From Escherichia phage PECP20: a stretch of 64,000 bases of DNA. Of this stretch, positions 2,761 to 34,245 are shown piece by piece (positions within the stretch are counted from its first letter, which is position 1; every line of letters starts with the position of its first letter). Made by a program: the position numbers and the translations under genes. Under the pieces are notes generated by a model. That model was not told the DNA's origin, searched no databases, and saw nothing but the letters and a program-made list of their open reading frames with translations. Location: the sequence record OQ873415.1; one strand, written 5' to 3'.

Positions 2761-2762
2761 TT

Positions 2763-3074
2763 TTATTTCCTCAGATTTTTCTTAACAACCTTCCAATCAG
2801 CTTTGAACATTTCAACGTCAGAGTGGCAAATCCAGAATCCTGCACTTTCACCATCTTCATAGAGTGGACATCCATCACATTCTTCGTTCCAACCCATTTC
2901 ACGTAAAGCTTCTTCAGCTTGTTCAAGGAGTTCAGCGTCTTTACCGACGATGTTGAAGTACCATTTACCTCTAACTTCAGAATCTTTGATGCTCTGACGT
3001 TGCAATCTCATTTTATTCTCCTTCACTTTTGATTTGATAGGGCTACTATAACATAACCCTATCTGATTGTACAC
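2763..3074 (-). CDS. hypothetical protein (frd.1/frd.2-like position)
   Basis: 103-aa ORF tightly packed between frd and next ORF; contains CDGC/ICH Cys-His pairs; no assignable function. Confidence 0.5.
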   Translation of the reverse strand: MYNQIGLCYSSPIKSKVKENKMRLQRQSIKDSEVRGKWYFNIVGKDAELLEQAEEALREMGWNEECDGCPLYEDGESAGFWICHSDVEMFKADWKVVKKNLRK

Positions 3075-3466
3075 TACTTTTTAAAAGTTTTTTGCAAAAG
3101 TTCGATGATTTCGTCGACGTTGGTTTCATCTACGATACAATGGATTTTTGTTACACCTAAAGTTATACCTTCGTTAGTAGTTTGAGGCTTTACTAAATCT
3201 ACCTCAGTAAAGTATTTGAACTCGTCAGGATAAATCTCAAAATAAGTTCCAATTTCACCACCGGCAGAACATACAGTACCATCTTCCATAGTTACACTTA
3301 CTACGTTTGGCGTATCGCTATCATAATCAGGTTCCATTCCGTTTACAACAAAACTAGGCCCATGGAGTTCAATCAATTTTAACATCTTAGCGTTATTATG
3401 TGGTGCTTCTTGAACAAAGTCGTCTTTAAATAAAGGGTTAATGATATAAGATTTTCCGATTTCCAT
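3074..3466 (-). CDS. hypothetical protein (frd.3-like position)
   Basis: 130-aa ORF, 1-nt stop/start overlap with downstream ORF; early promoter upstream. Confidence 0.5.
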   Translation of the reverse strand: MEIGKSYIINPLFKDDFVQEAPHNNAKMLKLIELHGPSFVVNGMEPDYDSDTPNVVSVTMEDGTVCSAGGEIGTYFEIYPDEFKYFTEVDLVKPQTTNEGITLGVTKIHCIVDETNVDEIIELLQKTFKK

Positions 3467-6879: not shown

Positions 6880-9800
6880 ATGGTTGACATCAAACGTAAG
6901 TTCAGGGCCGAAGATGGTCTTGACGCAGGCGGTGATAAGATAGTTAACGTTGCGCTTGCTGACCGCACAGTTGGCACCGATGGCGTGAACGTTGACTTTT
7001 TGGTGCAAGAAAACACCGTACAGAATTATGACGATACGCGCGCGTATACAAAAGATTTTATTGTTCTTTATGATAATCGTTTTTATCAAGCTTTAAGCGA
7101 TATTCCAGCTCCGGCAGGCCCTTTCTCTTTGGCTAAATGGAAGGCAACTCGTACAGATGCAGAATGGATTACAGTTCAAGGCGGAGATTTCCAATTATCA
7201 GTAGGTAACTCTATTGCGGTTGATACTTCAGCTGGCACTGATATTAATTTCACTTTGCCTAAAAATCCTTTAAATGGCGATACAGTTATTTTGTCTGATA
7301 TTGGCGGTAGAGTAGGCTATGTAAAAGTTCAAATTACTGCAGAGGCTCAAAGTATTGTAAACTTTAGAGGACAACAGGTTCGTTCAGTTTTAATGACGCA
7401 CCCAAAATCTAAAATGGTCTTCATTTTTAGCAACCGCCTATGGCAAATGTATGTTTCTGATTACGAACGTAATGCAGTCACAGTAACTCCTGCTAAGCCA
7501 TATCAGGCGCAACCTAACGATTTTATCATTCGACGTTTTACATCAGCCGCTCCTATTAATATTACATTGCCTCGCAATGCTAATAATGGCGATATTATTA
7601 ATTTAGTTGATTTAGACAAATTAAACCCGTTATATCACACAATTGTCAAAACTTACGATGATACAACTTCTATACGAGAAGCCGGTGTTCATGTAGCAGA
7701 AGGACGTAATACTGCGGAAGCATTCTTTGTTTATGATTCTGCTAATAGCTTATGGCGTGTTTGGGAAGGTGACCAGAAATCTCGTTTACGTATAGTTCGT
7801 AATGATACTGATTTACGCCCTAATGAAGAAGTTCTTGTTTTTGGAACTAATAATGATACAATCTCGACGGTAAATCTTACTTTGCCTACAGATATTTTGT
7901 CTGGTGATACTGTTAAAATATCGTTGAATTATATGCGTAAAGGGCAAACTGTAAAAATTAAAGCTGCTGAAGGCGATACAATTGCTAGCAGTATTTCTTT
8001 ATTACAGTTCCCAAAACGTTCAGAGTATCCACCTGATGCACAATGGGTTTCTGTTAGTGAGCTGGAATTTAATGGCGATACTTCGTATGTACCTGTACTT
8101 GAGTTAGCTTATATAGAAGATTATTCATCTGAAACAAAATATTGGGTAGTTCAGCAAAACACTGTAACCGTCGAACGAGTCGATGCATCGAGCAATACAA
8201 CTCGAGCTCGTTTAGGTGTTATTGCTCTTGCTTCTCAAGCGCAAGCAAATGTCGATTTAGAAAATGCTCCTGGTAAAGAACTTGCTATTACTCCGGAAAC
8301 ATTAGCAAATCGTACAGCAACTGAAACTCGTCGTGGTATTGCTCGTATTGCAACAACTGCACAAGTTAACCAGAATACCGATTTTGCATTCCAAGACGAC
8401 TTGATTATTTCTCCTAAGAAATTGAACGAACGTACAGCAACTGAAACCCGTAGAGGTGTTGCTGAAGTTGCAACTCAGGATGAAACTAATGCTGGCATAG
8501 ATGATACCACTATTATTACTCCTAAGAAATTGGATGCCCGTCAAGGTTCTGAAGTTTTATCTGGTATTGTAAAATACACATCTACGACTGGTACTACAGC
8601 GGCTACTGTTCGTGGTAATGCTGGGACTAACGTTTATAACAAAGCCGTAGATAATTTAACTATTTCTCCAAAGGCTCTTGACCAGTATAAAGCTACCCCT
8701 ACTCAACAGGGCGCAGTAATTCTTGCTATTGAAAGTGAAGTTATCGCTGGTGAATCACAAACCGGTTGGGCTAATGCTGTAGTGACCCCTGAAACACTAC
8801 ATAAGAAAACTTCTACTGATGGACGTATTGGTTTAATTGAAATTGCTACGCAAGCAGAAACTAACACTGGAACTGATTATACTAGAGCAGTAACGCCTAA
8901 GACGTTAAATGATAGGAAAGCTACGGAAGGATTATCCGGCATAGCCGAAATTGCTACGCAAGTTGAATTTGATACTGGAACTGACGATACTCGTATCTCG
9001 TCTCCACTGAAAATTAAAACTCATTTTGATTCTTCTGACCGTACCAGTGTTAATTCTGATTCCGGACTTATTGAAGAAGGAACCTTGTGGAACCATTATA
9101 CTCTTGATATTTCTAAAGCAAATGAAACACAACGTGGTACACTTCGCGTAGCGACTCAGGCAGAATCTAATGCCGGAACTTTAGATGATGTTCTTATTAC
9201 TCCTAAAAAACTTTTAGGGACTAAGTCCACTGAAACGTCTGAAGGCGTGATTAAGGTTGCTACTCAGGCTGAAACTGTAACAGGAACTTCTGCTAATACT
9301 GCTGTATCGCCTAAGAATTTAAAATGGATTGTCCAGGATGAACCAACATGGGCTGCTACTACGGCAATTCGTGGATTCGTTAAAACTTCATCTGGTTCTA
9401 TTACATTCGTTGGTGACGATACTCAAGGTAGTACCCAGGACCTGAATCTTTACGAGAAAAATAGTTATGCTATTTCTCCATATGAATTAAACCGTGTACT
9501 TGCTAACTATTTGCCATTGAAAGCTAAAGCCGTAGATAGTAATCTGTTAGATGGTCTAGATTCTCTTCAGTTCATCCGTAGAGACATCGACCAGACGGTT
9601 AATGGTTCTTTAAGTCTTACTAAACAGACCAACCTGAGTGCTCCTTTAGTATCTACAAGCACTGCTTCTTTTGGTTCCGAAGCATCTGTTACTCGTAGAT
9701 TAACTCTTAATGACTCTAGCGGTTCCGAAATAGTTTTCACTAAAGGAACTCAATCTCTTAGTAATAAAGAGAATTTCGTTGTTAGAGCATGGGGTAATAG

Positions 9801-10713
9801 CGCTACAGATGGTGCCCGTGATACAGTATTTGAAGCGGGTGACGAAACTGGATACCATTTCTATTCTCAGCGCGCTTCTGATAATAAAGTATCATTTAAT
9901 ATTAATGGAACACTTTATTCAACAGGCATTGTTTCTACAAATGGATTAAACGTTACAGGTGTTTCTACCTTTACCGGGCCTATTAGTGCTACAGGCGAAA
10001 TTGTTTCTAGTTCTCCTATTGCATTCAGAGCTATTAACGGTAACTATGGTGTTATGCTTTATAATGCTGGTAACAGTTCTTATATTGCATTAACTAACTC
10101 AGGTGACCAGACCGGGACGTTTAATAACTTACGCCCGATCACGATTAACAATGCCACAGGCCTAGTTCGTCTTGACAACGGTGTTCAAATCACAAGTGGT
10201 GCAACAATAACTACCGGTGGGTTAACTGTAAATAACAGGATTATTTCTAACGGCGTTAAAACTGCCACGGTTTATACCGATAAACCAACAGCTTCTACTG
10301 TAGGTTTTTGGTCTATTGACATTAACGATTCTGCTGTATATAGCCAATTCCCTGGATACTGGACGCGTGATAACAAAGGTAACCGTGACCAAGAAATTAA
10401 ATATCCTGGTACTTTGACTCAATTTGGTAATAGCTTAGATTCGCTTTATCAGGATTGGATTTGTTATCCTACAGGTGCAAATGGTGGTAGTATTCGTTAT
10501 ACTCGTACCTGGCAGAAAAATAAAGATGCTTGGACTTCATTTGCAATGGTATTTGATAGTGGCAACCCACCTTCACCTAGCGATGTCGGTGCTATCCCGT
10601 CTGATAATGCTGTTATTGGAAACCTTACTATTCGAGACTTCTTACAATTAGGAAATGTGAGAATTGTTCCAGACCCGGTTAACAAAACAGTTAAATTTAT
10701 ATGGGTTGAATAA
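6880..10713 (+). CDS. 34: Long tail fibre proximal subunit gp34
   Basis: 1277 aa; late promoter TATAAATA at 6838-6845 and SD AAGAGGA upstream; internal ~36-40-aa repeats typical of T-even fibre proteins. Confidence 0.95.
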   Translation: MVDIKRKFRAEDGLDAGGDKIVNVALADRTVGTDGVNVDFLVQENTVQNYDDTRAYTKDFIVLYDNRFYQALSDIPAPAGPFSLAKWKATRTDAEWITVQGGDFQLSVGNSIAVDTSAGTDINFTLPKNPLNGDTVILSDIGGRVGYVKVQITAEAQSIVNFRGQQVRSVLMTHPKSKMVFIFSNRLWQMYVSDYERNAVTVTPAKPYQAQPNDFIIRRFTSAAPINITLPRNANNGDIINLVDLDKLNPLYHTIVKTYDDTTSIREAGVHVAEGRNTAEAFFVYDSANSLWRVWEGDQKSRLRIVRNDTDLRPNEEVLVFGTNNDTISTVNLTLPTDILSGDTVKISLNYMRKGQTVKIKAAEGDTIASSISLLQFPKRSEYPPDAQWVSVSELEFNGDTSYVPVLELAYIEDYSSETKYWVVQQNTVTVERVDASSNTTRARLGVIALASQAQANVDLENAPGKELAITPETLANRTATETRRGIARIATTAQVNQNTDFAFQDDLIISPKKLNERTATETRRGVAEVATQDETNAGIDDTTIITPKKLDARQGSEVLSGIVKYTSTTGTTAATVRGNAGTNVYNKAVDNLTISPKALDQYKATPTQQGAVILAIESEVIAGESQTGWANAVVTPETLHKKTSTDGRIGLIEIATQAETNTGTDYTRAVTPKTLNDRKATEGLSGIAEIATQVEFDTGTDDTRISSPLKIKTHFDSSDRTSVNSDSGLIEEGTLWNHYTLDISKANETQRGTLRVATQAESNAGTLDDVLITPKKLLGTKSTETSEGVIKVATQAETVTGTSANTAVSPKNLKWIVQDEPTWAATTAIRGFVKTSSGSITFVGDDTQGSTQDLNLYEKNSYAISPYELNRVLANYLPLKAKAVDSNLLDGLDSLQFIRRDIDQTVNGSLSLTKQTNLSAPLVSTSTASFGSEASVTRRLTLNDSSGSEIVFTKGTQSLSNKENFVVRAWGNSATDGARDTVFEAGDETGYHFYSQRASDNKVSFNINGTLYSTGIVSTNGLNVTGVSTFTGPISATGEIVSSSPIAFRAINGNYGVMLYNAGNSSYIALTNSGDQTGTFNNLRPITINNATGLVRLDNGVQITSGATITTGGLTVNNRIISNGVKTATVYTDKPTASTVGFWSIDINDSAVYSQFPGYWTRDNKGNRDQEIKYPGTLTQFGNSLDSLYQDWICYPTGANGGSIRYTRTWQKNKDAWTSFAMVFDSGNPPSPSDVGAIPSDNAVIGNLTIRDFLQLGNVRIVPDPVNKTVKFIWVE
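8287..9324 (+). repeat. In-frame tandem repeats (~8 units of 36-40 aa) inside gene 34
   Basis: Recurring units I(T/S)PK.L...(T/S)TE..(R/S)G(I/V)A.(I/V)ATQ.E.N.GTD; DNA-level near-identity e.g. cgtacagcaactgaaac at 8311-8327 and 8431-8447. Confidence 0.8.
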
Positions 10714-10721
10714 GAGGTTAT

Positions 10722-11846
10722 ATGGAAAAATTTATGGCAAGGTTTGGACAGGGATACGTCCAAACGCCGTTTTTATCGGAAAGCAATTCAGTTAGATTTA
10801 AGCTAAGTATAGCGGGTTCATGCCCGCTTTCAACAACTAATCCGTATATTTTGTTCCAAAACGAGCCTTTAGGGTTGCAGTCTTTTGGTATTGGACTAAA
10901 TGTTAGGGTGATAAATCCGGAAAATGGAACTATAGTTGATAGTAAATTATACAATTTTGCGCCTACAAATAATGCAACTTCAGCTGCATTTATTTCGTTT
11001 GTTAATACATACGCGGATAATTTCATTTTCGCATTTATTTCTAATAACAAATTTAATTTGCCACCAGAAATAATTGAATGGTTTAAAGCTGCTGGGAGTT
11101 CAGTTATACCGTCAATTGAAGTTGCTAGTCTTGTTGATATTTCATATTCAGCGTTTTATGTTTCAGGTAAAAATACTATTGCATTAGAACACATAAAATA
11201 CAGTAATAAGAAAACAATTTCTGATTACGCAACCCCATTAGATATTGTATATGACTCTATTGCTGATATAGGTGCTACCGGCTATCCTAGACGTACATAT
11301 GAAGCTTTAGAAACGTTTTTATCTCCTGTTGGAGGAACTAACAATGAAATAAAAAGGATGCCTACGTCATCCCTTGTTACTCCTATCGCAAACTATGGAT
11401 TAAAGCCTGCAGATTTTCTTTATTTGAAATTTCAATTAATGGCTGATGAAGAATTATTAGAGGAAGGAACCACAAGACTTTCAATTCGTTTCTTTAAGTC
11501 TCCATCTAGCTCTCCTATATCATCTAAAGATATAAACTTTGATGGAACTGCCGGGGAGTGGAAGTTATATGAAGAATACGTTGAAATACCAGCTGAAGCT
11601 GATGGCTTTACAGTATATTGTTACCGTACGGCCTCAGTCGGTCAAGGTGGACTAAGAAATGTTATTTTCACTGAAGTATCATGTAACGGAAGTATAGCAA
11701 AACCCGCCGAGTTTGGCCTAAACGGTATTCGTGCTAATTACATCGATGAATCATTAATCGGTAATGATATAATGGACTTGCCTACCCAGTTATCTAACGA
11801 CACAGGTAAGGTATTTGGGCAGGAATTTAAAGAGTACACAGAATAA
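10722..11846 (+). CDS. 35: Long tail fibre hinge connector gp35
   Basis: 374 aa (T4 gp35 372 aa); follows gene 34 with 8-nt spacer. Confidence 0.85.
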   Translation: MEKFMARFGQGYVQTPFLSESNSVRFKLSIAGSCPLSTTNPYILFQNEPLGLQSFGIGLNVRVINPENGTIVDSKLYNFAPTNNATSAAFISFVNTYADNFIFAFISNNKFNLPPEIIEWFKAAGSSVIPSIEVASLVDISYSAFYVSGKNTIALEHIKYSNKKTISDYATPLDIVYDSIADIGATGYPRRTYEALETFLSPVGGTNNEIKRMPTSSLVTPIANYGLKPADFLYLKFQLMADEELLEEGTTRLSIRFFKSPSSSPISSKDINFDGTAGEWKLYEEYVEIPAEADGFTVYCYRTASVGQGGLRNVIFTEVSCNGSIAKPAEFGLNGIRANYIDESLIGNDIMDLPTQLSNDTGKVFGQEFKEYTE

Positions 11847-11865
11847 AGGAGACTTCGGTCTCCTT
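11846..11865 (+). terminator. Stem-loop/terminator after gene 35
   Basis: AAGGAGAC-TTCG-GTCTCCTT followed by TT; directly followed by gene 36 late promoter. Confidence 0.55.
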
Positions 11866-11871
11866 TTCGCG

Positions 11872-11879
11872 TATAAATA
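11872..11879 (+). promoter_or_regulatory. Late promoter TATAAATA for gene 36
   Basis: Exact TATAAATA immediately after terminator hairpin and 27 nt upstream of gene 36 ATG. Confidence 0.7.
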
Positions 11880-11905
11880 CTTTAATATTAATAAGGAGAC
11901 ACGAA

Positions 11906-12562
11906 ATGGCCGATTTAAAAGCCGGAAGTACAGTTGGTGGTTCCGTCATATGGCATCAAGGCAATTTTCCTTTAATGCCAGCTGGCGATGACATCCTATA
12001 TAAAACATTTAAATTATACACCGAATATAACAAGCCAAAAGCGGCTGATAACGATTTCGTATCTAAAGCAAACGGTGGGACATATCTCAAAAAGGTAATC
12101 TTTAACGAAGGTGTTGCAGTCAAAACAGCAGATGACCAAACGAATGGTATTTTTTCTGGTGGTGGTGACGCCGCGACATTCGACCAAACAAACATGGATA
12201 TTGTTTCGTGGTATGGTATTGGGTTTAAATCATCTCAAGGTACAGGTGAAAGAACCGCTGTAATTGATACTCGCACCGGTAATATAAGTTCTAAAGGCGT
12301 TATTGAAGCATCTCAATTCAGAGCCACAACGTTAGCACCTTTAAATAATTACGACCTTACTCGCAAAGATTATGTTGATAGTCAAATAAATACAGTTAAT
12401 GCTAATGCAAACAGTCGTGTACTCCGTTCAGGAGATACGATGACCGGCGCGCTAACCGCCCCAAACTTTTTCTCACAGAATCCTGCATCTCAACCCTCGC
12501 ATGTTCCACGATTTGACCAAATTGTTATTAAGGATTCTGTTCAAGATTTCGGCTATTATTAA
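11906..12562 (+). CDS. 36: Long tail fibre distal connector gp36
   Basis: 218 aa (T4 gp36 221 aa); own late promoter TATAAATA at 11872-11879. Confidence 0.85.
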   Translation: MADLKAGSTVGGSVIWHQGNFPLMPAGDDILYKTFKLYTEYNKPKAADNDFVSKANGGTYLKKVIFNEGVAVKTADDQTNGIFSGGGDAATFDQTNMDIVSWYGIGFKSSQGTGERTAVIDTRTGNISSKGVIEASQFRATTLAPLNNYDLTRKDYVDSQINTVNANANSRVLRSGDTMTGALTAPNFFSQNPASQPSHVPRFDQIVIKDSVQDFGYY

Positions 12563-12570
12563 GAGGACTT

Positions 12571-15500
12571 ATGGCTACTTTAAAACAAATACAATTTAAA
12601 AGAAGCAAAACTGCAGGAGCACGTCCTGCCGCTTCAGTATTAGCCGAAGGTGAATTGGCTATAAACTTAAAAGACCGTGTACTTTTTACTAAAGATGACC
12701 AAGGAAATATTATTGATCTAGGTTTTGCTAAAGGTGGTAGTATTGACGGGAATGTTATTCATACTGGCAATTACAACCAAACTGGTGATTATACTTTAAA
12801 TGGCGTCTTCACACAGACGGGTAATTTTAATTTAACTGGTATTGCTCGAGTAACTCGCGATATTATTGCCGCCGGGCAGATTATGACTGAAGGCGGTGAA
12901 CTTATTACAAAAAGTTCAGGCACAGCACATGTTCGTTTTTTCGATAACAATAGTCGCGAACGCGGAATCATTTATGCCCCGGCTAATGATGGTTTAACTA
13001 CACAAGTACTTAATATCAGGGTTCAAGACTATGCCGCTGGTAGCGAAAGCACTTATGCATTTTCAGGCAGTGGACTATTTACTTCACCTGAAGTATCAGC
13101 ATGGAAATCTATTTCGTCTCCACAAATTCTAACCAACAAAGTCATTACTAATAATAAATCTACGGGTGATTATGACATCTATTCGATGGCAGACAATGTT
13201 CCATTGTCTGAAAGCACTACTGCTATTAATCATCTTCGTGTCATGCGTAATGCCGTTGGTTCTGGTATTTTCCATGAAGTTAAAGATAATGATGGAATAA
13301 CTTGGTATAGTGGAGATGGATTAGATGCTTATCTTTGGTCATTTACCTGGAGCGGCGGAATTAAATCAAGTCACTCAATTTCTATCGGTTTAACACCAGG
13401 TAATAAAGATTATTCAATATTAGGACCATCTAGCATTGCTTTAGGAGATAATGATACTGGATTTAAATGGCATCAAGACGGATATTATTTCAGCGTTAAT
13501 AATGGAACAAAAACGTTTTTATTTAATCCTAGCGAAACAACTAGCCTAAGAAAATTTGTAGCTGGATATTCTACTAATGGAACCGATTTAACTACTCCTC
13601 CAACTGAAAACTATGCTCTTGCTACTGTTGTGACATATCACGATAATAACGCGTTTGGAGATGGTCAGACTCTTTTGGGATATTATCAAGGCGGTAACTA
13701 TCATCATTATTTCCGCGGCAAGGGTACTACAAACATTAATACTCACGGCGGTTTGTTAGTTACTCCTGGTAATATTGACGTTATTGGCGGTTCTGTAAAT
13801 ATAGATGGTAGAAATAATTCTTCTACACTAATGTTTAGAGGCAACACAACAGGATACAGCTCGGTTGATAATATGGATATTAAAGTTTGGGGTAATACGT
13901 TTGTTGATCCAAGCGGAGGTATCCGTAAAAACATTATGGAAATTTCTGATGCAACTAGCTGGATGAGCTATATTCAAAGACTTACTACTGGCGAAGTAGA
14001 AATGAACGTTAATGGTTCATTTGAATCATCTGGTGTTACTGCTGGAGATAGAGGAGTTCACACAACAGGTGAAATTTCATCTGGAGCAATGAATGCACTT
14101 CGCATTTGGAATGCAGATTATGGAGCCATTTTTAGACGTTCAGAAGGTAGTCTTCATATTATTCCAACTGCTTACGGTGAAGGCAAAAATGGTGATATCG
14201 GTCCACTTCGCCCGTTTAGTATGGCTTTAGATACCGGTAAAGTTACTATTCCAGATTTACAATCAAGTTACAATACGTTCGCAGCGAACGGCTATATTAA
14301 ATTTGTTGGTCATGGCGCTGGCGCAGGTGGATATGATATTCAATATGCCCAAGCGGCTCCTATTTTCCAGGAAATTGATGATGATGCTGTAAGCAAATAT
14401 TATCCTATTGTTAAACAGAAGTTTTTAAATGGTAAAGCCGTTTGGTCTTTAGGTACTGAAATTAATTCGGGTACATTCGTTATTCATCATCTGAAAGAAG
14501 ATGGATCACAAGGCCATACGTCTCGTTTTAATCAAGACGGTACTGTTAACTTCCCAGATAACGTTTCTGTTGGCGGCGGTGAAGCTACTATTGCTCGCAA
14601 TGGTAATATCTGGTCTGATATCTGGAAAACGTTTACTTCTGCCGGTGATACTACAAATATTCGCGATGCTATTGCGACTCGTGTTTCGAAAGAAGGCGAC
14701 ACGATGACCGGCACTCTTTGGATTAATAAAGATGCCGCTGGAATAGTTCTTAATCCTCCTTTGACCAGTGATTCATCATTTATTCGTTCTGATACGGCCG
14801 GGGCCAATAATTGGTATATTGGTAAAGGCGGTGCCGACAATGGTCTAGGTTTTTACAGTTATGTTACACAAGGCGGTGTATATATAACAAATAACGGAGA
14901 AATATCACTTTCTCCTCAAGGCCAAGGAACATTTAATTTTAATAGAGACCGCCTCCATATAAACGGTACACAATGGGCCGCACACCAGGGCGGTGGTTGG
15001 GGAAATCAATGGAATCAAGAAGCACCGGTATTTGTAGATTTTGGTAATGTTGGTAATGATAGTTATTATCCTATTATTAAAGGAAAATCCGGTATTACTA
15101 ATGAAGGATACATATCTGGTGTAGATTTTGGTATGCGACGCATTACTAATACATGGGCACAAGGTATTATTCGTGTAGGTAATCAGGAAAACGGTTACGA
15201 CCCACAAGCTGTATATGAATTCCATCATAACGGTACTTTTTATGCTCCAAGCTTACTTAAGAGCAGTAGAGTATCAGCTGGTGGTGGTGACCCTGCATGG
15301 GGCGGGCCGTGTATTGTACTTGGAGATAACGATACCGGTTTGCTTTGGGAAAACGATGGTATTTTCAACGCATATGCAAACGGCCAAGGTGTGTTTAGTT
15401 TTAGACCTGGTTTAGCTCAGACATTCGGTGATGTTAACTTCCACTGTAATGCAGGTATGTATGTTCGTGATAACATTGATGTTAATGACGTTTATATTCG

Positions 15501-15822
15501 TTCTGATATTCGTTGTAAGTCGGAAATTAAGCTTATTAAGAACGCTCAAGAGAAATCTAAACTATTGGGCGGTTATACTTATCTGCTTAAAAACTCTGTT
15601 ACAGACGAAGTTAAACCGTCCGCAGGTTTAATTGCTCAGGAAGTTCAAGAAGTATTACCTGAACTTGTTTCTGAAGATAAAGAGACCGGACTGCTTCGTT
15701 TGAACTATAACGGTATTATTGGTTTAAATACAGCTGCAATAAACGAGCATACAGATGAAATCAAGGAATTGAAATCTGAAATTACCGAATTGAAAGCATT
15801 AATTAAATCATTGATAAAATAA
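12571..15822 (+). CDS. 37: Long tail fibre distal subunit gp37 with C-terminal intramolecular chaperone (peptidase S74-like) domain
   Basis: 1083 aa; N-terminus MATLKQIQFKRSKTAGARPAASVLAEGELAINL typical of gp37/gp12 family; C-terminal SDIRCK motif and coiled-coil tail resembling auto-cleaving chaperone domains. Confidence 0.9.
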   Translation: MATLKQIQFKRSKTAGARPAASVLAEGELAINLKDRVLFTKDDQGNIIDLGFAKGGSIDGNVIHTGNYNQTGDYTLNGVFTQTGNFNLTGIARVTRDIIAAGQIMTEGGELITKSSGTAHVRFFDNNSRERGIIYAPANDGLTTQVLNIRVQDYAAGSESTYAFSGSGLFTSPEVSAWKSISSPQILTNKVITNNKSTGDYDIYSMADNVPLSESTTAINHLRVMRNAVGSGIFHEVKDNDGITWYSGDGLDAYLWSFTWSGGIKSSHSISIGLTPGNKDYSILGPSSIALGDNDTGFKWHQDGYYFSVNNGTKTFLFNPSETTSLRKFVAGYSTNGTDLTTPPTENYALATVVTYHDNNAFGDGQTLLGYYQGGNYHHYFRGKGTTNINTHGGLLVTPGNIDVIGGSVNIDGRNNSSTLMFRGNTTGYSSVDNMDIKVWGNTFVDPSGGIRKNIMEISDATSWMSYIQRLTTGEVEMNVNGSFESSGVTAGDRGVHTTGEISSGAMNALRIWNADYGAIFRRSEGSLHIIPTAYGEGKNGDIGPLRPFSMALDTGKVTIPDLQSSYNTFAANGYIKFVGHGAGAGGYDIQYAQAAPIFQEIDDDAVSKYYPIVKQKFLNGKAVWSLGTEINSGTFVIHHLKEDGSQGHTSRFNQDGTVNFPDNVSVGGGEATIARNGNIWSDIWKTFTSAGDTTNIRDAIATRVSKEGDTMTGTLWINKDAAGIVLNPPLTSDSSFIRSDTAGANNWYIGKGGADNGLGFYSYVTQGGVYITNNGEISLSPQGQGTFNFNRDRLHINGTQWAAHQGGGWGNQWNQEAPVFVDFGNVGNDSYYPIIKGKSGITNEGYISGVDFGMRRITNTWAQGIIRVGNQENGYDPQAVYEFHHNGTFYAPSLLKSSRVSAGGGDPAWGGPCIVLGDNDTGLLWENDGIFNAYANGQGVFSFRPGLAQTFGDVNFHCNAGMYVRDNIDVNDVYIRSDIRCKSEIKLIKNAQEKSKLLGGYTYLLKNSVTDEVKPSAGLIAQEVQEVLPELVSEDKETGLLRLNYNGIIGLNTAAINEHTDEIKELKSEITELKALIKSLIK

Positions 15823-15827
15823 TAAAA

Positions 15828-15841
15828 GGGCCTTCGGGCCC
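15828..15841 (+). terminator. GC stem-loop between genes 37 and 38 (no U-tract; possible RNA stabiliser or weak terminator)
   Basis: GGGCC-TTCG-GGCCC 5 nt after gene 37 stop, followed by SD GGAGG of gene 38. Confidence 0.4.
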
Positions 15842-15852
15842 TGGAGGTTTAT

Positions 15853-16632
15853 ATGGCAGTAGTAGGAATCCCTGGTTGGATTGGGACTTCAGCCGTTGCT
15901 GAAACGGGACAAAGATGGATGACGGCTGCTTCAAGGGAACTTCGTTTAGGAAACCCTTCATGGATGTCCCAATTCGCGGGCCGTTCAAGAGAAATAATTC
16001 ACACACTTGGAGCAGACCATAACTTCAACGGTCAATGGTTCCGAGATAGATGTTTTGAGGCAGGTAGTGCACCTATAGTGTTTAATATCACCGGAAATTT
16101 GGTATCATATAGTAAAGATGTTCCATTATTCTTTATGTATGGCGATACGCCAAATGAATATGTTACTTTGAATATTCATGGTGGAGTTCATATGTGGGGA
16201 CGAGGTGGTAACGGTACTGTAAACGGAAACCCAGGCACTAATGGTGGCGATGTAATCCAAAATGATATCGGCGGAAGACTTCGTATTTGGAACTATGGTG
16301 TTATTGCATCAGGCGGTGGCGGAGGTGGTGCAGTGTCATTACAGAATAGCTGGGCGCCAAATGCTACAGCAGGTGGCGGTGGTGGTAGACCATTTGGCAT
16401 CGGCGGAGGTGGAGTTAATTGGCCGGGTGGTAATGCTAGTTATGACGCCCCGGGCGGGGCCGGTTACACTTCCCAATTCGGCGGAGGCAATGGCGGTGAT
16501 GCTGGAGGTCGTGGCGGAGATGGATGGGGTAATCACTTATCTAGATCTGGCGGTGGTGCTCCTGGCAGAGCAGTATTCGGAAGTTCACCGTCATGGGGTG
16601 CTACAGGCACAATCTACGGCTCCTGGATTTAA
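15853..16632 (+). CDS. 38: Tail fibre adhesin gp38, T2-type with glycine-rich motifs
   Basis: 259 aa; conserved N-terminus [11 protein letters not shown]...[46 protein letters not shown] followed by poly-Gly motifs and C-terminal GSWI, as recalled for T2/T6 gp38. Confidence 0.85.
16192..16560 (+). repeat. Glycine-rich motif region of gp38 adhesin (poly-GGN/GGT codon runs)
   Basis: Protein segments [36 protein letters not shown] separated by short variable segments. Confidence 0.8.
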
Positions 16633-16650
16633 ACGATAATACCTCTCAAT

Positions 16651-16658
16651 TATAAATA
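16651..16658 (+). promoter_or_regulatory. Late promoter TATAAATA for holin gene t
   Basis: Exact TATAAATA 20 nt upstream of ATG 16678, SD GGGAGG. Confidence 0.7.
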
Positions 16659-16677
16659 TTGATAAATGGGAGGTAAT

Positions 16678-17337
16678 ATGGCAGCACCAAAAGTATCATT
16701 TTCGCCTAGTGATATTTTATTTGGGTTGCTAGACCGCATTTTCAAAGATAACGCCTCTGGAAATATTCTTATTTCAAGAGTTGCTGTTGTAGTTCTTTTG
16801 TTCCTAATGGCACTAATATGGTACAAAGGGAATATTTTTATGGATTATTACGTGAGGTCGAAATATGATACTTACACAGAAGTAATTCAAAAAGAAAGAA
16901 ATACACGATTTGAATCTGCGGCTTTAGAACAACTACAAATAGTCCACGTCACATCAAGGGCGGATTTTAGTTCGGTGTATTCTTTCAGACCTAAAAATCT
17001 AAATTATTTCGTCGACCTTATTGCGTATGAAGGTAAGTTACCTAGCACAGTAACTGAAAAATCTATGGGAGGATTTCCTGTTGATAAAACGACAGCAGAA
17101 TATTCGGTCCATTTAAGTGGACTTCACTTTACTTCTAAAACAGATTTTGCTTTCTTACCTACCAAATCAAAAACTCCGGAACTGGCGTATATGTATAGTT
17201 GTCCTTACTTCAATTTGGATAACATATATGCGGGAACTGTTTCTATGTATTGGTATAAGGGATCGGATGTGCTAAATGAAGAACGCTTGGCTGCAATATG
17301 CAACCAAGCAGCAAGGATATTAGGGCGGGCTAAATAA
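16678..17337 (+). CDS. t: Holin T
   Basis: ATG at 16678 gives 219 codons beginning MAAPKVSFSPSDILFGLLDRIFKDN, near-identical to T4 holin N-terminus as recalled; single TMD; late promoter at 16651-16658. Confidence 0.9.
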   Translation: MAAPKVSFSPSDILFGLLDRIFKDNASGNILISRVAVVVLLFLMALIWYKGNIFMDYYVRSKYDTYTEVIQKERNTRFESAALEQLQIVHVTSRADFSSVYSFRPKNLNYFVDLIAYEGKLPSTVTEKSMGGFPVDKTTAEYSVHLSGLHFTSKTDFAFLPTKSKTPELAYMYSCPYFNLDNIYAGTVSMYWYKGSDVLNEERLAAICNQAARILGRAK

Positions 17338-20609: not shown

Positions 20610-21935
20610 TCAAAGTGCCTCCAAGTCTTTAGTGTACTCTGACACAACATCAGTAGACTTCCAATACTCATTTTCTTCTTTCTTAGCTTTAGCTTCTTCT
20701 GCTAGTTTACGTGCTTCGTCAGAAGTGATATGGAAGATGTTAAGACCTACCAATTTATCGATATGTTCTTTATACATTTCGATTTGTGCTAGCTCTTCAG
20801 TCAAAGCTTTACGAGTCTTGCCTTGAATCACAATTTCGCCACTGATAACTTTTTTGATGAAGTGTGCCTTAGCAAAAGCCAGTTTAAATGCTTTTTCAGA
20901 TTCAATGATTTTGTTATCAATACGTTTCTGAACGTAAGTCTTACGGACTTCAACAAAATCTTTGATTAAGTCCACTACGTTATCGTAGACCGTTAATTTA
21001 CCCTTTTCATTAATCACTGTGATGTTTTGTGAACGACGTTCGATGAGACTAAAATCTTTCATGATTTTTTCATGACGTAGCTCTTCATCATCAGGAAGCG
21101 AGTACTCTTTACGGAACTTCACCTTAAACCCAAAACCGTGTTCACCACAATCATCTTCCCATGAGATTAGACCTTTGTCTTCCAACGGGTCAAGAACCTT
21201 ACTCACATACGTTTCACGGTCGAATTTATATGGGATTTCAGTTATCTGCATTTGAGTGCGAGATGTGAACTTATATGTTCCGTGAATCTCATAACGCCCA
21301 TCAACTTCATGCACTTCACCGCGGAATTCCGGGAATTCAACTTTTGGTTTAGTGACATTTTTACCTTGAAGAGCTTGTAATACAGCCTTTTTGACCGATT
21401 TAAAACTATGAGGCAGAATATTTGTTGCGTAACCGGTTGCAATACCAGAGACACCGTTCAAAAGAACTGTCGGAATAATAGGAAGATAGAATTTTGGTGG
21501 AACGTGTTCTTTATCTTCATGAGCTGGAGCATATTCGGTATCTTTATAGACATTATAGAAATTTTTGCTTACACGAGCAAAAATATAACGAGATGCTGCA
21601 GCTTTTTGGACTGTTCGAGAACCAAAGTTGCCTTGACCATCTAATAGTGGATAGTTGTTATTCCATGTGTTAGCCATCAATGCACCTGCATCTTGTGCAG
21701 AAGATTCACCATGGTGATAACCTAAATCTGCAACACCGCCTGCAATTGACGCAAGTTTATGAAATTTTTCTTTATTACCACGAGCCAAATCTAATGCACG
21801 ATGAACCACAAAACGTTGAACCGGCTTAAATCCATCAATCATGTTTGGGATTGCACGGTTTTCAACGGTGTACATAGCATATGCTAAGGCTTCGTTATCA
21901 ATAATACTTTTTAGATTACGAGAATTCAATTGCAT
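20610..21935 (-). CDS. 52: DNA topoisomerase II medium subunit gp52
   Basis: 441 aa (T4 gp52 442 aa); GyrA-like N-terminal region with YAMYTVENRAIP... and active-site Tyr context. Confidence 0.9.
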   Translation of the reverse strand: MQLNSRNLKSIIDNEALAYAMYTVENRAIPNMIDGFKPVQRFVVHRALDLARGNKEKFHKLASIAGGVADLGYHHGESSAQDAGALMANTWNNNYPLLDGQGNFGSRTVQKAAASRYIFARVSKNFYNVYKDTEYAPAHEDKEHVPPKFYLPIIPTVLLNGVSGIATGYATNILPHSFKSVKKAVLQALQGKNVTKPKVEFPEFRGEVHEVDGRYEIHGTYKFTSRTQMQITEIPYKFDRETYVSKVLDPLEDKGLISWEDDCGEHGFGFKVKFRKEYSLPDDEELRHEKIMKDFSLIERRSQNITVINEKGKLTVYDNVVDLIKDFVEVRKTYVQKRIDNKIIESEKAFKLAFAKAHFIKKVISGEIVIQGKTRKALTEELAQIEMYKEHIDKLVGLNIFHITSDEARKLAEEAKAKKEENEYWKSTDVVSEYTKDLEAL

Positions 21936-27870: not shown

Positions 27871-28971
27871 TTACGCTGTGAAGATTTTATCCCACATCGC
27901 AACAACTGCATCTCGGTTATACTTCTTCCATACGGCTTCAGCACGTTTAACTCGAGCTTCGTATGTGTCAGTGAATTCTAATACAGCTTTTGTGTAAAGC
28001 GCAACTACTTCTTTCTTAGGAGTAGAGGAATCAATTTCTACACGCACAGTATCTGGGTCATATTCGAATGTCGCGTGCGGATAATCCTTAAAAACTAACT
28101 GAATCACAGGGACACCTTTAGAGATGGCTTCAATAGAACTATTCTCTACCGTACCCGTGTCAGGACACGTATTGATAAGTGCTTTAGCTGTTTTAAGACG
28201 TTCCATGATTTCACTGTGTGGAGCATCAATAATAACAGGATACTTAGCCGGTGGTGCCCATTTACTAGGACAGTATCCTGCACCATTTTCGCCTAGTGCT
28301 TTAATCGCTTCAAGAGCAACATCAGTACGACGCATTTTAGTGTCATAACGTTGTGCACTAATAATCAGATCAGTCGCCGGAAGAACTTCAGGTTTCTCAT
28401 TCAAACAAATAACCGGATAATCTTCGGCTTCAAACAACGGATTTGCTCGCCAATAATCATAATCAATTTTGTCAGTCAGACCTGAAGTCATATAACAATA
28501 TTTGCGTTCAAATTCACGGAAGGCTTTAGTAGGAGCATAACTCTTACCACCGTTCTTATGAATTTGAATAGTCTGGTCCCAAATTTGAACAATACCACGA
28601 GATACCGGTTCAAATGGTGTTGCCATAAAATTCTTATGAACTTTAGAGAGACCTGCGTCTTTAATTGCCTGAACGGTTAGTTTGGTCGGTTCCATTGTAA
28701 CAACGAAATCGTACTCATTAATGCCGGCTAGTTCAACAATCTTACGAGCCATAGTATAACTCATACCTAGACTGAATTTAGTCAGATGACCAACAGGATG
28801 ATGATTAACCTTCCAATCACCAAATGTGTCATTATCAAAACCGATATAATCAATATCGGCACCGATAGAAACTAAATATTTCAACACATTTAAATGTACT
28901 GCTTCAAGACCACCTTGTACACGTTCAGGATTAAATGGGACTGCACGAGATGGGATAAACATAACTTTCAT
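27871..28971 (-). CDS. putative GT-B fold glycosyltransferase (candidate DNA hmC sugar transferase)
   Basis: 366 aa; C-terminal donor-binding motif PDTGTVENSSIEAISKGVPVI matching the E-x7-E / EAxxxGxPVI signature of GT-B (GT4-like) enzymes; occupies the gene 60/mobA slot of T4. Confidence 0.6.
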   Translation of the reverse strand: MKVMFIPSRAVPFNPERVQGGLEAVHLNVLKYLVSIGADIDYIGFDNDTFGDWKVNHHPVGHLTKFSLGMSYTMARKIVELAGINEYDFVVTMEPTKLTVQAIKDAGLSKVHKNFMATPFEPVSRGIVQIWDQTIQIHKNGGKSYAPTKAFREFERKYCYMTSGLTDKIDYDYWRANPLFEAEDYPVICLNEKPEVLPATDLIISAQRYDTKMRRTDVALEAIKALGENGAGYCPSKWAPPAKYPVIIDAPHSEIMERLKTAKALINTCPDTGTVENSSIEAISKGVPVIQLVFKDYPHATFEYDPDTVRVEIDSSTPKKEVVALYTKAVLEFTDTYEARVKRAEAVWKKYNRDAVVAMWDKIFTA

Positions 28972-28997: not shown

Positions 28998-29015
28998 AAG
29001 CTCCTAAAGGAGCTT
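28998..29015 (-). terminator. Stem-loop overlapping gene 39 stop, followed by U-rich tract
   Basis: Plus text aagctcc-taaa-ggagctt; separates gene 39 from the glycosyltransferase gene. Confidence 0.4.
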
Positions 29016-30831
29016 AGGACATCCATTCTTTACGAAGTTCTGAATCATCACCCAACAACATTTCAAAGAGTTCTTTCCAATTTTCAGGAAGTTTAACTAC
29101 GTCGTACACAGGGTTCTGAATCATTTCACGATACTCTGACTTTTCAAGGGAGCCTAATCCCTTGATGTATCGAATACTATGCTTAGGCAGTGTATCTTTA
29201 ACTTCTTCATACTCAGCTACAGTATAAAACCATTTTTGAGTTTTGCCAATTTGTGCAATAATTACAGGTGTTTTAACAAAGCGAATACGTCCTTGTTCAA
29301 ACAATTCAGGCCAATTACTAAAGAAAGCAAGCAAAGCCGGATAGATACTTCCAAGACCGTCATGATCGGCATCGGTCATAATTGCAATATTACGATAGTT
29401 CGTATTCTCTGCCTTTTCACCAAGAATAAGACCTGTGATAGCACAGATATCGAATAACTCTTTGTTCTTCATCATATCAGCATATGACATACCCCAGCTA
29501 TTCATCACCTTACCACGTAATGGGAATCCACCGTGTAGTTCACGGTCACGAACATCAATGAGATATCCAATTGCCGAATCACCTTCTGTTAAGAACAATG
29601 TCGTATCTGCATCTTTACCACATTGGTTAGCTTTAATATGCTTATGAACCTTAGCTTTAGTTGCCTTTTTAGCTGCTTTAGTTTCTGCAGCCTTTTCTGC
29701 TGCCAATTTACGAGCTAATGCTGCTTCAACAATAGGCATAATCAAGGCTTCGTTTTTAAGAAGTGCCTGGGCAATTTTCTTAGCATCTAATTGGATATGA
29801 TTACGAATATCACCATACGTTGACGTTAAACGTTCTTTAGTCTGAGAATCAAAACGCATGTTGCTCATGTCTCGAATAAACATCAACATTGTGAGGCATT
29901 CTTTAACACGAGCTTTAGTGACTTCAATACCCTTATATTTCTTTTTAATACCTGGCAAAAGATGTTCGCAGATATCATCCATTACACATTCAACATGATG
30001 ACCACCATTTTTAGTATGGATGTTATTCACATAAGTTAAATGACGGAAGCCATCTGGTGATGTTGTGAATGCTATAGAGACTTTATCATTTTCTTGAATG
30101 ATGTTATCTTCACCAAATTGTTTAGCAAATCGTTTAAAATTACCATCGACCTTTTTACCATTAAATGTGAACTTGATATCAGGATAAACGACTGCCAATG
30201 TTTGAAGTCGATCTAAAGTAATATCTAAATAAATTTGAGATAAATTATGCTCTTCAAATGAAGTGAAATCAGGAGTGAAGATTACTTTAGTGCCTTTACC
30301 TTTAGATTTCTTAGAAGACCATGATTTGTTTTCCATTCCGTTTGAACAGTTAACAGTGATTTCATTTTCGCCATCTGACGTGATGCCTGTAAACAACGTA
30401 GAGAAGATATTAGTTAAACTACTCCCGACGCCGTTCATACCACCAGTCTTGCGTTCAGAGTCATCACCAAAGTTACCACCGGCCTTTGGAATAGTCCAGG
30501 CTGCTACAGGCCCAGGAATTTGTTCACCTGTTTGGTCGGTAACTAAACCTTGAGGAATACCACGTCCGTTATCTTCCACCGAAACTTGATTATTTTTAAT
30601 TTGCACATCAATTTTATTTGCAAACTTAAATGATGTACGAATAGCTTCATCAACCGAGTTGTCAATAATCTCATCGATTAATTTAACCAGGCCAGGAACA
30701 TATTCAACTTGTTGATATTTACCAAACAAAAAACGCTCGTGGGCTTCTTTAGCAGAAGAACCAATATACATACCACTACGTTTCTTAATATGTTCTACAT
30801 CTGACAATACCTTAATTTCATTTTTAATCAT
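29014..30831 (-). CDS. 39: DNA topoisomerase II large subunit, unsplit 39+60 fusion
   Basis: 605 aa single ORF; GyrB-like ATPase N-terminus plus TOPRIM/C-terminal region that in T4 is encoded by separate gene 60. Confidence 0.9.
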   Translation of the reverse strand: MIKNEIKVLSDVEHIKKRSGMYIGSSAKEAHERFLFGKYQQVEYVPGLVKLIDEIIDNSVDEAIRTSFKFANKIDVQIKNNQVSVEDNGRGIPQGLVTDQTGEQIPGPVAAWTIPKAGGNFGDDSERKTGGMNGVGSSLTNIFSTLFTGITSDGENEITVNCSNGMENKSWSSKKSKGKGTKVIFTPDFTSFEEHNLSQIYLDITLDRLQTLAVVYPDIKFTFNGKKVDGNFKRFAKQFGEDNIIQENDKVSIAFTTSPDGFRHLTYVNNIHTKNGGHHVECVMDDICEHLLPGIKKKYKGIEVTKARVKECLTMLMFIRDMSNMRFDSQTKERLTSTYGDIRNHIQLDAKKIAQALLKNEALIMPIVEAALARKLAAEKAAETKAAKKATKAKVHKHIKANQCGKDADTTLFLTEGDSAIGYLIDVRDRELHGGFPLRGKVMNSWGMSYADMMKNKELFDICAITGLILGEKAENTNYRNIAIMTDADHDGLGSIYPALLAFFSNWPELFEQGRIRFVKTPVIIAQIGKTQKWFYTVAEYEEVKDTLPKHSIRYIKGLGSLEKSEYREMIQNPVYDVVKLPENWKELFEMLLGDDSELRKEWMS

Positions 30832-30853
30832 GTTGTCTCCTCGTTATGAAGGT

Positions 30854-30880: not shown

Positions 30881-30882
30881 AA

Positions 30883-30894
30883 GGGCCGAAGCCC
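30883..30894 (-). terminator. Terminator hairpin whose U-tract overlaps the MotA box of the gene 39 middle promoter
   Basis: Minus strand GGGC-UUCG-GCCC followed by UUUUUGCUUUA. Confidence 0.5.
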
Positions 30895-31317
30895 TTATTT
30901 AAATTTAATTTTCTGAAGTGCATCAATTGCAGCCAAACGCCCTTGTTCACTTTTAACCGTAATGACCACATCACCTGATACGATCACTGAACCATCAACA
31001 AATTCTATAGAGCCTTTTTTGAAATCGACAGCTGTATCTGATTCCGGAACTTCTTCAAAGAATTTAAATTCTGCACCATAAATCAGAATATCACCTTGCA
31101 TACTAATGATTGTACGTCCAGGTCCATCGGTTTCAGCGGCAATCATTGAAACACCGTAGCCAATCATCTCTTCTACAATAAAATCTCTTGATAATAAAAC
31201 TGTATGCAGAGTAGTGTTAAGACGTTTACCAGTTGTATTAAGAATTCTCAAGAAATTATCTTCTTGACCTTTGATAATACGATATTTCTTACCAACTTCA
31301 AAACCTTTAAAAGCCAT
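30895..31317 (-). CDS. hypothetical protein (39.1/goF region)
   Basis: 140-aa ORF; terminator hairpin directly after stop. Confidence 0.5.
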   Translation of the reverse strand: MAFKGFEVGKKYRIIKGQEDNFLRILNTTGKRLNTTLHTVLLSRDFIVEEMIGYGVSMIAAETDGPGRTIISMQGDILIYGAEFKFFEEVPESDTAVDFKKGSIEFVDGSVIVSGDVVITVKSEQGRLAAIDALQKIKFK

Positions 31318-31319
31318 AA

Positions 31320-31499
31320 TTATCCCTTCTTAAGTAAGTCGTAAAAACCACCATTCACATGTTTAGGAGCAGAAACCCGACGAGTAGACAGACGATGACA
31401 TTCAGGGCAAACATCGTTTTCTCGTTCAGAAATCCTTTTAATTTTTTCATATTCATGGCCACAATCTTCAGATTGACATTTATAGTCGTATAACGGCAT
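31320..31499 (-). CDS. small zinc-ribbon protein (59 aa)
   Basis: Hand-translated: MPLYDYKCQSEDCGHEYEKIKRISERENDVCPECHRLSTRRVSAPKHVNGGFYDLLKKG; CxxC...CxxC; not in ORF track (below size cut-off). Confidence 0.45.
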   Translation of the reverse strand: MPLYDYKCQSEDCGHEYEKIKRISERENDVCPECHRLSTRRVSAPKHVNGGFYDLLKKG

Positions 31500-32774: not shown

Positions 32775-33194
32775 TTATGCGAAAGCAGCTGGGCTATATT
32801 TTTTAATTTGGAATTCAGGAACTACCATGAACTGTCCAGCGAAAACGATGTTATAAAGCTTAACACCATCTTCTACCCAACGGTCGCTAATAAAACCAGC
32901 AATTTGCTTAGTTTTCCATGGCGTTCCATCAGTTGCCGCAGCAATAGTGAATTCATGGTCTTTTTCAACAGAAACTGATCTGCATAGTCCCCATTTGAAC
33001 GCTTTTTCTTCCGGTTCAATGAATTGGCCTGAGACATAGCCAATGTTACCATCGGCGTCACGAACTTTAACTTCATTACGTCCAAAAACCGGATCGCTCA
33101 CAGAAAGAACTTCAACCAACTTCCCGGCAACTTTAGAGCGAGAAGCAACAGATACATATACGTAATCACCTGTAGAGAGATTTACAATATTCAT
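32775..33194 (-). CDS. hypothetical protein, member 1 of tandem paralogue triplet
   Basis: 139 aa; shares SRSK.AGKLVEV, FKW.LC and GFISD.WVEDG.KLYNIVF.G.F.VV motifs with next ORF. Confidence 0.5.
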   Translation of the reverse strand: MNIVNLSTGDYVYVSVASRSKVAGKLVEVLSVSDPVFGRNEVKVRDADGNIGYVSGQFIEPEEKAFKWGLCRSVSVEKDHEFTIAAATDGTPWKTKQIAGFISDRWVEDGVKLYNIVFAGQFMVVPEFQIKKYSPAAFA

Positions 33195-33203
33195 AATAAT
33201 TCC

Positions 33204-33689
33204 TTAAGCTTTACGAGGAGACACATAGCGAGTGATTTCAGATTCTTTAACAACTCGGAAGTCACCTAAGAATACGATATTGTATAACTTTTCACCATCT
33301 TCTACCCATTGGTCACTAATGAAGCCACACATAGTATCAGTTTTGCTTGGATAACCGTATTCATCGATGAAGTCAAATTCTTTATCAGTCTGGAATTCAA
33401 CACCTTTACACAAGGCCCATTTGAACTGTGCATTAGGCTCTGTGGATTCAACTTTTTCTCTTGAAGCAAAAGCACCACTCACAGGAGTTTCCAAGAACTT
33501 TGCACGAACATAAGCAAATTGGGTTTCCATTGACCCAAGACTAGGAATAATACGAACTTTTACCTCAGAATCTTCATCTTTAACACCTTCTTTAAGTTGA
33601 ATACTTACAACTTCGACCAATTTTCCTGCTGCTTTAGAACGAGATTTGTTAGATACGCGAACGATTTCACCAATAATACCAAGATTCAT
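33204..33689 (-). CDS. hypothetical protein, member 2 of tandem paralogue triplet
   Basis: 161 aa; same motifs as 32775-33194. Confidence 0.5.
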   Translation of the reverse strand: MNLGIIGEIVRVSNKSRSKAAGKLVEVVSIQLKEGVKDEDSEVKVRIIPSLGSMETQFAYVRAKFLETPVSGAFASREKVESTEPNAQFKWALCKGVEFQTDKEFDFIDEYGYPSKTDTMCGFISDQWVEDGEKLYNIVFLGDFRVVKESEITRYVSPRKA

Positions 33690-33750
33690 AATTTTCTCTC
33701 TTTGTTTAAGTTGAATTCATTATACTCCATCCGTCCTTGGATGTACAACA

Positions 33751-34245
33751 TTAATTAAGGATATTAACCACAGCACTACGTGGAACTACACTAAAATCAC
33801 CTGCATGAACAACGTTCAGAAGTTCAACACCGTCTTCAATCCACTGATCAGTCACCCATCCATTTACTGGACCAGCGAATGGGCGTCGAATTGAAACATA
33901 TTTACACAACAAATCGGTAGGCTCAATAGGCTTAATCAGAGTACCGTACATACAAGCGATATCCATATCAATACAGATATCTTTAACGGGTTCTACTTCT
34001 TCAATCAACAGTTCAAAGTCGGTGCTTGGAAGGGCGGTGGTAGAAATTGTACCATATGAATTTTTAATTTCTAAGAATAACCAAGGGCCTTCAACTTGTT
34101 TGATGAAGTTAACAATAGTGAAACTATTACCTTGAGTGGCACCTAAAATTTCGCAAAACTTTTCATAAGCTCGCACTGAAGCACTGTACCAGTTGATTTG
34201 TTTTTCGTCTTTCAGGATATAAGTAGCCGTAGTATTGATATTCAT
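33751..34245 (-). CDS. hypothetical protein, member 3 (divergent) of tandem paralogue triplet
   Basis: 164 aa; shares C-terminal GWVTDQWIEDGVELLNVVHAGDFSVV with the other two. Confidence 0.5.
   Translation of the reverse strand: MNINTTATYILKDEKQINWYSASVRAYEKFCEILGATQGNSFTIVNFIKQVEGPWLFLEIKNSYGTISTTALPSTDFELLIEEVEPVKDICIDMDIACMYGTLIKPIEPTDLLCKYVSIRRPFAGPVNGWVTDQWIEDGVELLNVVHAGDFSVVPRSAVVNILN

Follow-up and report, generated by a model that had tools for sequence, protein, structure and literature searches.

Very probably, the topoisomerase II large-subunit gene described here is a normal gene that was never invaded, encodes the large (GyrB-like) subunit of a type IIA topoisomerase of the T4 family and is carried by an RB69-like (Mosigvirus) coliphage. 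It lies in a stretch of 64,000 nucleotides from Escherichia phage PECP20 (OQ873415.1), which was analysed as a whole and is called the window below. The unsplit gene is real, ordinary and already known: phages T2, T6, RB14 and RB69 have it, and it is annotated '60plus39' in several genomes. In T2 and T6 the unsplit form has been known since the late 1980s, when gene 60 was studied. As a discovery it carries little weight, and its value is that of a reference gene. Positions 29356-29412 of the window mark the exact empty target for the mobA/bypass cassette of other lineages, in a genome that makes its topoisomerase without translational recoding.

The large-subunit gene, its protein and its neighbours

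The original prediction was a single 605-aa ORF. The list of open reading frames gives one at 29014..30831 on the minus strand, beginning with ATG, and re-translation of this interval returned 605 codons with one terminal stop and no internal stop. At the base composition of the window, where each codon has a stop probability of 0.07, the chance that a frame stays open over 605 codons is about 9e-20 for each start position. The frame is preceded by a Shine-Dalgarno sequence and carries all the expected domains on one chain. The prediction held on this point. The features of the locus, and the gene for the partner subunit, are as follows.

29014..30831, minus strand: topoisomerase II large-subunit gene, gp39-type ('60plus39'); single frame, Pfam, PHROG and T4 alignment
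30837..30842, minus strand: Shine-Dalgarno sequence GAGGAG, 5 nt before the ATG at 30831; read directly from the sequence
30262..30693, minus strand: GHKL ATPase domain, aa 47-190; Pfam PF02518 (HATPase_c) and motifs
29677..30087, minus strand: transducer domain (DNA_gyraseB), aa 249-385; Pfam PF00204 and QTK loop
29572..29586, minus strand: TOPRIM catalytic glutamate motif EGDSA, aa 416-420; T4 counterpart on gp39
29356..29412, minus strand: empty MobA homing site, codons 474-492 (A/ENTNYRNIAIMTDADHDG/); T4/RB14 comparison, with element boundaries from Manning & Atkins
29356-29373, minus strand: TOPRIM DxDxD motif DADHDG, aa 487-492; within the empty MobA site
29020..29274, minus strand: TOPRIM-associated C-terminal domain, aa 520-604; Pfam PF16898 at 28.2 bits and gp60 alignment
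28998..29015, minus strand: terminator-like hairpin over the stop codon (AAGCTCCTTTAGGAGCTT, then a T-rich run); terminator scan
30881..30896, minus strand: terminator-like hairpin between a 140-aa ORF and the topoisomerase gene; terminator scan
20610..21935, minus strand: partner gene, gp52-type topoisomerase II medium subunit, GyrA/ParC-like, 441 aa; PF00521 (E = 2.6e-78) and PHROG 551

Terminators are annotated in Enterobacteria phage ATK48 at the same two places as the hairpins at 28998..29015 and 30881..30896. The terminator scan also reported an intragenic hairpin at 29431-29448, just upstream of the MobA site. We took this one as chance, because the same codons of RB14 (ATT TGC GCA ATC ACT GGA) cannot form a hairpin.

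PHROG 543, 'DNA topoisomerase II large subunit', covers aa 1-605 of the protein (E = 1e-286), and the solved T6 topoisomerase II chain 8ylu_C likewise matches over the full length, 1-605, with 1160 bits. The chain has every motif that an active type IIA B subunit should carry: in the GHKL domain the N-box EIIDNSVDE (54-62), DNGRGIP (87-93) and the ATP lid GGMNGVG (130-136); in the transducer the QTK loop (aa 330-332); and in TOPRIM, complete on one chain, EGDSA (416-420), PLRGK (437-441) and DADHDG (487-492). The TOPRIM_C model (PF16898) scored 28.2 bits, just short of the 29 set as its curated cut-off, and Pfam did not report its Toprim model. We regard the sub-cut-off TOPRIM_C score as a matter of profile sensitivity, because the TOPRIM motifs are there and the match to solved phage enzymes runs over the full length. 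The NCBIfam models for GyrB and ParE matched end to end with scores far under their curated cut-offs, and the protein is therefore a homologue of both and an equivalog of neither.

The gene is translated conventionally from its strong Shine-Dalgarno sequence. The resulting chain of 605 residues combines a GHKL ATPase, a transducer, a complete TOPRIM and a C-terminal domain, and two such large subunits, together with two gp52-type subunits encoded 7 kb away, would form, as in T6, an A2B2 enzyme that uses ATP to pass one DNA duplex through another. By homology with the T6 enzyme (8ylu; PMC11461880), the ATPase domains are expected to dimerise the large subunit, which would sit on the gp52 dimer and supply the TOPRIM metal site, with the gp52 tyrosine cleaving DNA. 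Enzymatic activity and subunit stoichiometry are here presumed by analogy. The 82% identity to the RB14 '60plus39' protein suggests that the subunit, with gp52, would perform the ATP-dependent relaxation and decatenation that have been demonstrated for the T6 and T4 enzymes (PMC11461880).

Several neighbouring genes deserve mention in their own right. Between the topoisomerase gene and rIIA.1, an interval without a gene in T4 and RB14, the window has a 366-aa ORF (27871-28971, minus strand). This ORF had no Pfam or NCBIfam match and matched PHROG 8302 (unknown function) at full length, and by position, length and presence in phage Shf125875 it corresponds to RB69 ORF003c/gp3. The RB69 protein has been proposed to be a GT-B DNA arabinosyltransferase (PMC6024577) and is listed as 'beta-arabinosyltransferase 2' (PMC13326640). 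Upstream of the topoisomerase gene, a 140-aa ORF (30895-31317, minus strand) belongs to PHROG 622 (unknown function), has a weak C-terminal resemblance to goF, and by position corresponds to RB32ORF005c of RB14, annotated there as similar to RB69ORF005c; in this interval T4 has gene 39.1 and RB14 has both. The ORF next upstream, at 31320-31499 (minus strand), is that of a 59-aa zinc-ribbon protein, 39.2/FmdB-like according to the annotation of related records. Further along, three consecutive ORFs at 32775-34245 on the minus strand (139, 161 and 164 aa) share the C-terminal motif ...GFISD[RQ]WVEDG.KLYN[IV]VF.G.F.VV... and look like tandem paralogues of the motB/motB.1 region; related records call them 'transcriptional regulator'. 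An Rfam scan of the whole 64-kb window at gathering thresholds gave no match. Positive GC skew is confined to about 8-18 kb, the region of the long plus-strand ORFs (6880-17337), which by position are probably tail-fibre genes; the rest of the window has negative skew.

The junction against T4 gp39 and gp60

T4 reference proteins were taken from NC_000866 (gp39, 516 aa; gp60, 160 aa with the gap removed), and their alignment located the junction, as the original prediction had proposed. Residues 1-474 of the window protein align with gp39 1-473 (375/474 identical, 79%), and residues 473-605 with gp60 27-159 (115/133 identical, 86.5%). The two alignments abut with no extra residues, in the order ...LILGEKA/ENTNYRNIAIMTDADHDG/LGSIYP..., the junction itself reading ...GEKA/ENTNY..., and the C-terminal domain at aa 520-604 is the equivalent of the C-terminal part of gp60. 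The T4 segments without a counterpart in the window are gp39 474-516 (a 43-residue tail), the N-terminal ~26-30 residues of gp60, and the intergenic DNA (60.1 and the mobA pseudogene). Rather than being divided within TOPRIM into two genes, the ORF runs on as one continuous frame of 605 codons.

The T4 split falls inside TOPRIM, between the EGDSA glutamate and the DxDxD motif. In T4 the EGDSA glutamate stays on gp39 and DxDxD moves to gp60, which puts the TOPRIM metal site on two polypeptides (bioRxiv 10.1101/2022.08.31.505936); unlike T4, the window has both motifs on one chain. The original prediction had placed the ATPase part and the TOPRIM/C-terminal part in one frame. Their continuity is confirmed, but the location of the split that it implied has to be corrected, since T4 is cut within TOPRIM and not at the boundary between ATPase and TOPRIM.

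Where T4 has its take-off site, the window has GAC GGT CTT GGA in frame, with GGT as codon 492. In T4 the take-off codon Gly46 is GGA, followed by TAG and the 50-nt gap, whereas in the window GGT is followed by the in-frame CTT. Searches of both strands of the whole 64-kb window found neither the T4 50-nt gap, allowing up to 12 substitutions, nor the core of the take-off hairpin, allowing up to 4. The remaining parts of the element were sought by tblastn against the whole window with queries from phage HY01, which has an intact element: MobA (272 aa), the C-terminal extension (CTE) and the unique part of the N-terminal extension (NTE). The best MobA match had E = 1.6, with no MobA-like gene in the 64-kb window, and nothing was significant for the three queries together, whose best hits (E 0.014-1.6) were scattered and lay outside the topoisomerase gene. 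These results agree with the prediction that there is no gene 60 split, no bypass and no mobA, and no residual bypass sequence turned up anywhere in the window.

Manning & Atkins described the MobA element as a unit of ~1.1 kb that enters at aa 466-473 and ends just after D490/G491 in RB14 numbering, deleting 55-75 nt and supplying in their place a diverged version of its own (HomR), along with the CTE, the NTE and the bypass cassette (bioRxiv 10.1101/2022.08.31.505936). Of the HY01 sequences, just the HomR part of the NTE had a match in the window, at 29356-29415, which is the parental sequence that HomR imitates. Throughout the insertion zone, the gene in the window and the uninvaded '60plus39' gene of RB14 (605 aa) are colinear at the level of single codons: GEKA-ENTNYRNIAIMTDADHDG-LGS in the window corresponds to GEKA-ENLNYHNIAIMTDADHDG-LGS in RB14.

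Relatives, direction of change and the empty site

The 3.9-kb locus is ~98-98.6% identical to that of phage ATK48 (Mosigvirus, RB69 group), and about 150 Mosigvirus records with the same annotation cover at least 80% of it at 95-99% identity; the protein of phage vB_EQ1 is 100% identical to that of the window. Over a 171-nt segment at the junction (29300-29470), all 162 matching phage records are uninterrupted, RB69 itself (NC_004928, gene 39; 97.1% identity) among them. One relative, Escherichia phage p000v (Mosigvirus, NC_055781), has a 265-aa free-standing homing endonuclease with NUMOD3 directly after the topoisomerase stop (2015-2812 of its locus, minus strand). Its topoisomerase gene is intact at 606 aa, and both the endonuclease family and the intergenic mode of insertion differ from those of T4 mobA; the window has no endonuclease at this place.

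A homologue of the large subunit was found in 2202 phage records, from which 60, evenly spaced, were sampled. The match was in one piece in 58 of the 60, the exceptions being T4 and CT01. Among the one-piece records were RB14, RB43 and Aeromonas phages 31 and 65 (all '60plus39'), as well as Vibrio, Agrobacterium and Campylobacter phages. The T4-type cassette occurs at full length in about 41 records, and divergent copies are found in Salmonella, Proteus, Acinetobacter and Shewanella phages. Outgroups also span the junction in a single alignment: Streptococcus pneumoniae ParE (query 7-604), yeast Topo II (7-603) and human Topo II alpha (10-571). According to published analysis, the mobA element is a secondary insertion, with unsplit parental genes beside every mobA-invaded clade (bioRxiv 10.1101/2022.08.31.505936). 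Because the outgroup alignments, the phage sample and the published analysis agree, we consider the continuous gene to be the ancestral as well as the majority state. Colinearity with RB14, alignment of the outgroups across the junction and the published secondary insertion all support the ancestry. The original prediction had called this state presumed ancestral; the ancestry stands, but 'presumed' undersells a well-documented majority condition.

The question then arises why no RB69-like genome carries the cassette. The gene may be intact because the RB69-like lineage is actively refractory to MobA homing, either through a divergent target or through arabinosylated cytosines that block nicking or recombination, and not simply for want of an encounter with the element so far, although we regard this as improbable. 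None of the 162 Mosigvirus-type junctions is occupied, a count without statistical force, since genomes so closely related do not represent independent cases; the same limit applies to the about 41 full-length T4-type cassettes set against the 578 records in the band of 80-90% protein identity, in which T4 and RB14 lie. Target divergence is an unlikely barrier, because the 48-nt target zone (29356-29403) is identical to the element HomR at 35 of 48 positions, close to the 36 of 48 of RB14, and polymorphisms of such order are reported not to block MobA nicking (Bonocora et al. 2011, as cited in bioRxiv 10.1101/2022.08.31.505936). The cytosine arabinosylation of RB69 and its failure to recombine with T4 are candidate barriers: RB69 is reported to carry arabinosylated cytosine and to exchange no DNA with T4 (PMC6024577), and a putative arabinosyltransferase gene lies immediately downstream of the window gene (27871-28971). 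Arabinosylated cytosines or a recombination barrier might conceivably stop MobA nicking or homing in the RB69-like lineage, but we would not expect it. If it were so, this would explain an empty site in every sequenced member as against the minority of T4-type phages that were invaded, and the window gene would be a natural test substrate for DNA hypermodification as a limit on the spread of homing endonucleases.

A much weaker case can be made for secondary re-fusion ('hit and run'), in which a mobA element first split the gene and its later excision brought back a single ORF. Such cases have been described for an Aeromonas phage clade, where single ORFs keep CTE/NTE insertions at the site (bioRxiv 10.1101/2022.08.31.505936), and no trace would remain after a perfectly clean excision, or if the gene had been repaired from an uninvaded relative in the same infection. 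The published hit-and-run genes retain CTE/NTE-homologous insertions, whereas in the window gene the gp39-like and gp60-like parts abut directly, no such insertion is found at the MobA site, the length is that of the colinear RB14 gene, the CTE and NTE queries gave nothing significant, and the same uninterrupted junction recurs in all 162 matching relatives. The absence of CTE/NTE residues already largely refutes re-fusion, which we consider very unlikely. Because the gene is colinear with RB14 and has no CTE or NTE match, we conclude that the MobA site is empty without a scar, and not re-fused. We infer that the site was never occupied, although an ancient loss so precise that the parental sequence came back would look the same. 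The mobA homing-endonuclease element, the source of the T4 split and of the 50-nt bypass gap, would thus never have inserted here, and it is for this reason that no recoding is needed.

An artefact of sequencing or assembly, by which a gene that is really split or frameshifted was made to look continuous, has next to no credibility, although artefacts in public records do occur at this locus (e.g. phage CT01), since about 150 independently sequenced genomes have the same uninterrupted 3.9-kb locus at 95-99% identity, one of them with an identical protein, and the frame keeps 605 open codons with conserved motifs throughout. Shigella phage CT01 (OK018184) was considered as a second type of split gene and rejected, its insert being E. 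coli chromosomal DNA. The gene appears split at about 2545-3383 of the CT01 locus; the insert is ~570 bp of ycaP-ycaO that are 99.7% identical to E. coli and present in 5426 of the 5426 E. coli genomes searched, and it is flanked by a duplicated stretch of the gene of ~180 nt. Chimeric assembly of the public record, rather than a mobile element, is the most likely source of the CT01 split.

Comparison with known systems

The closest counterpart of the never-invaded gene is gene 39 of RB69 and its equivalents in other Mosigvirus genomes (ATK48, Shf125875, vB_EQ1, JS09), which are the same gene at the same position and differ only by point substitutions. The gene order is also common to the window and Mosigvirus: goF/39.2-like genes, the 140-aa ORF, the topoisomerase gene, the ORF003c homologue, rIIA.1 and rIIA.

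The gp39 of T2 and T6 and the '60plus39' protein of RB14 are likewise single chains of 605 aa with the same domain order and a colinear MobA target, forming an enzyme with gp52 only; cryo-EM structures are available for the T6 gp39 enzyme (PDB 8ylu and others; PMC11461880). The window and RB14 are 82% identical in protein and 76% in DNA. They differ by one 1-residue indel at aa 300, far from the junction, and by a C-terminus that is one residue shorter. The 366-aa ORF003c homologue that separates the topoisomerase gene from rIIA.1 in the window has no equivalent in RB14, where this interval is without a gene. At a greater distance, bacterial GyrB and ParE and the N-terminal halves of eukaryotic Topo II have the GHKL-transducer-TOPRIM architecture and the catalytic motifs in common with the window protein, at ~30% identity or less.

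T4 shares the flanking genes with the window, namely 39.2, goF and cef upstream and rIIA.1 and rIIA downstream. In contrast, it carries the ~1.1-kb element, composed of the 43-aa C-terminal extension of gp39, mobA/60.1, the ~30-aa N-terminal extension of gp60, the replaced target zone and the 50-nt gap, whereas the window gene is free of every one of these parts.
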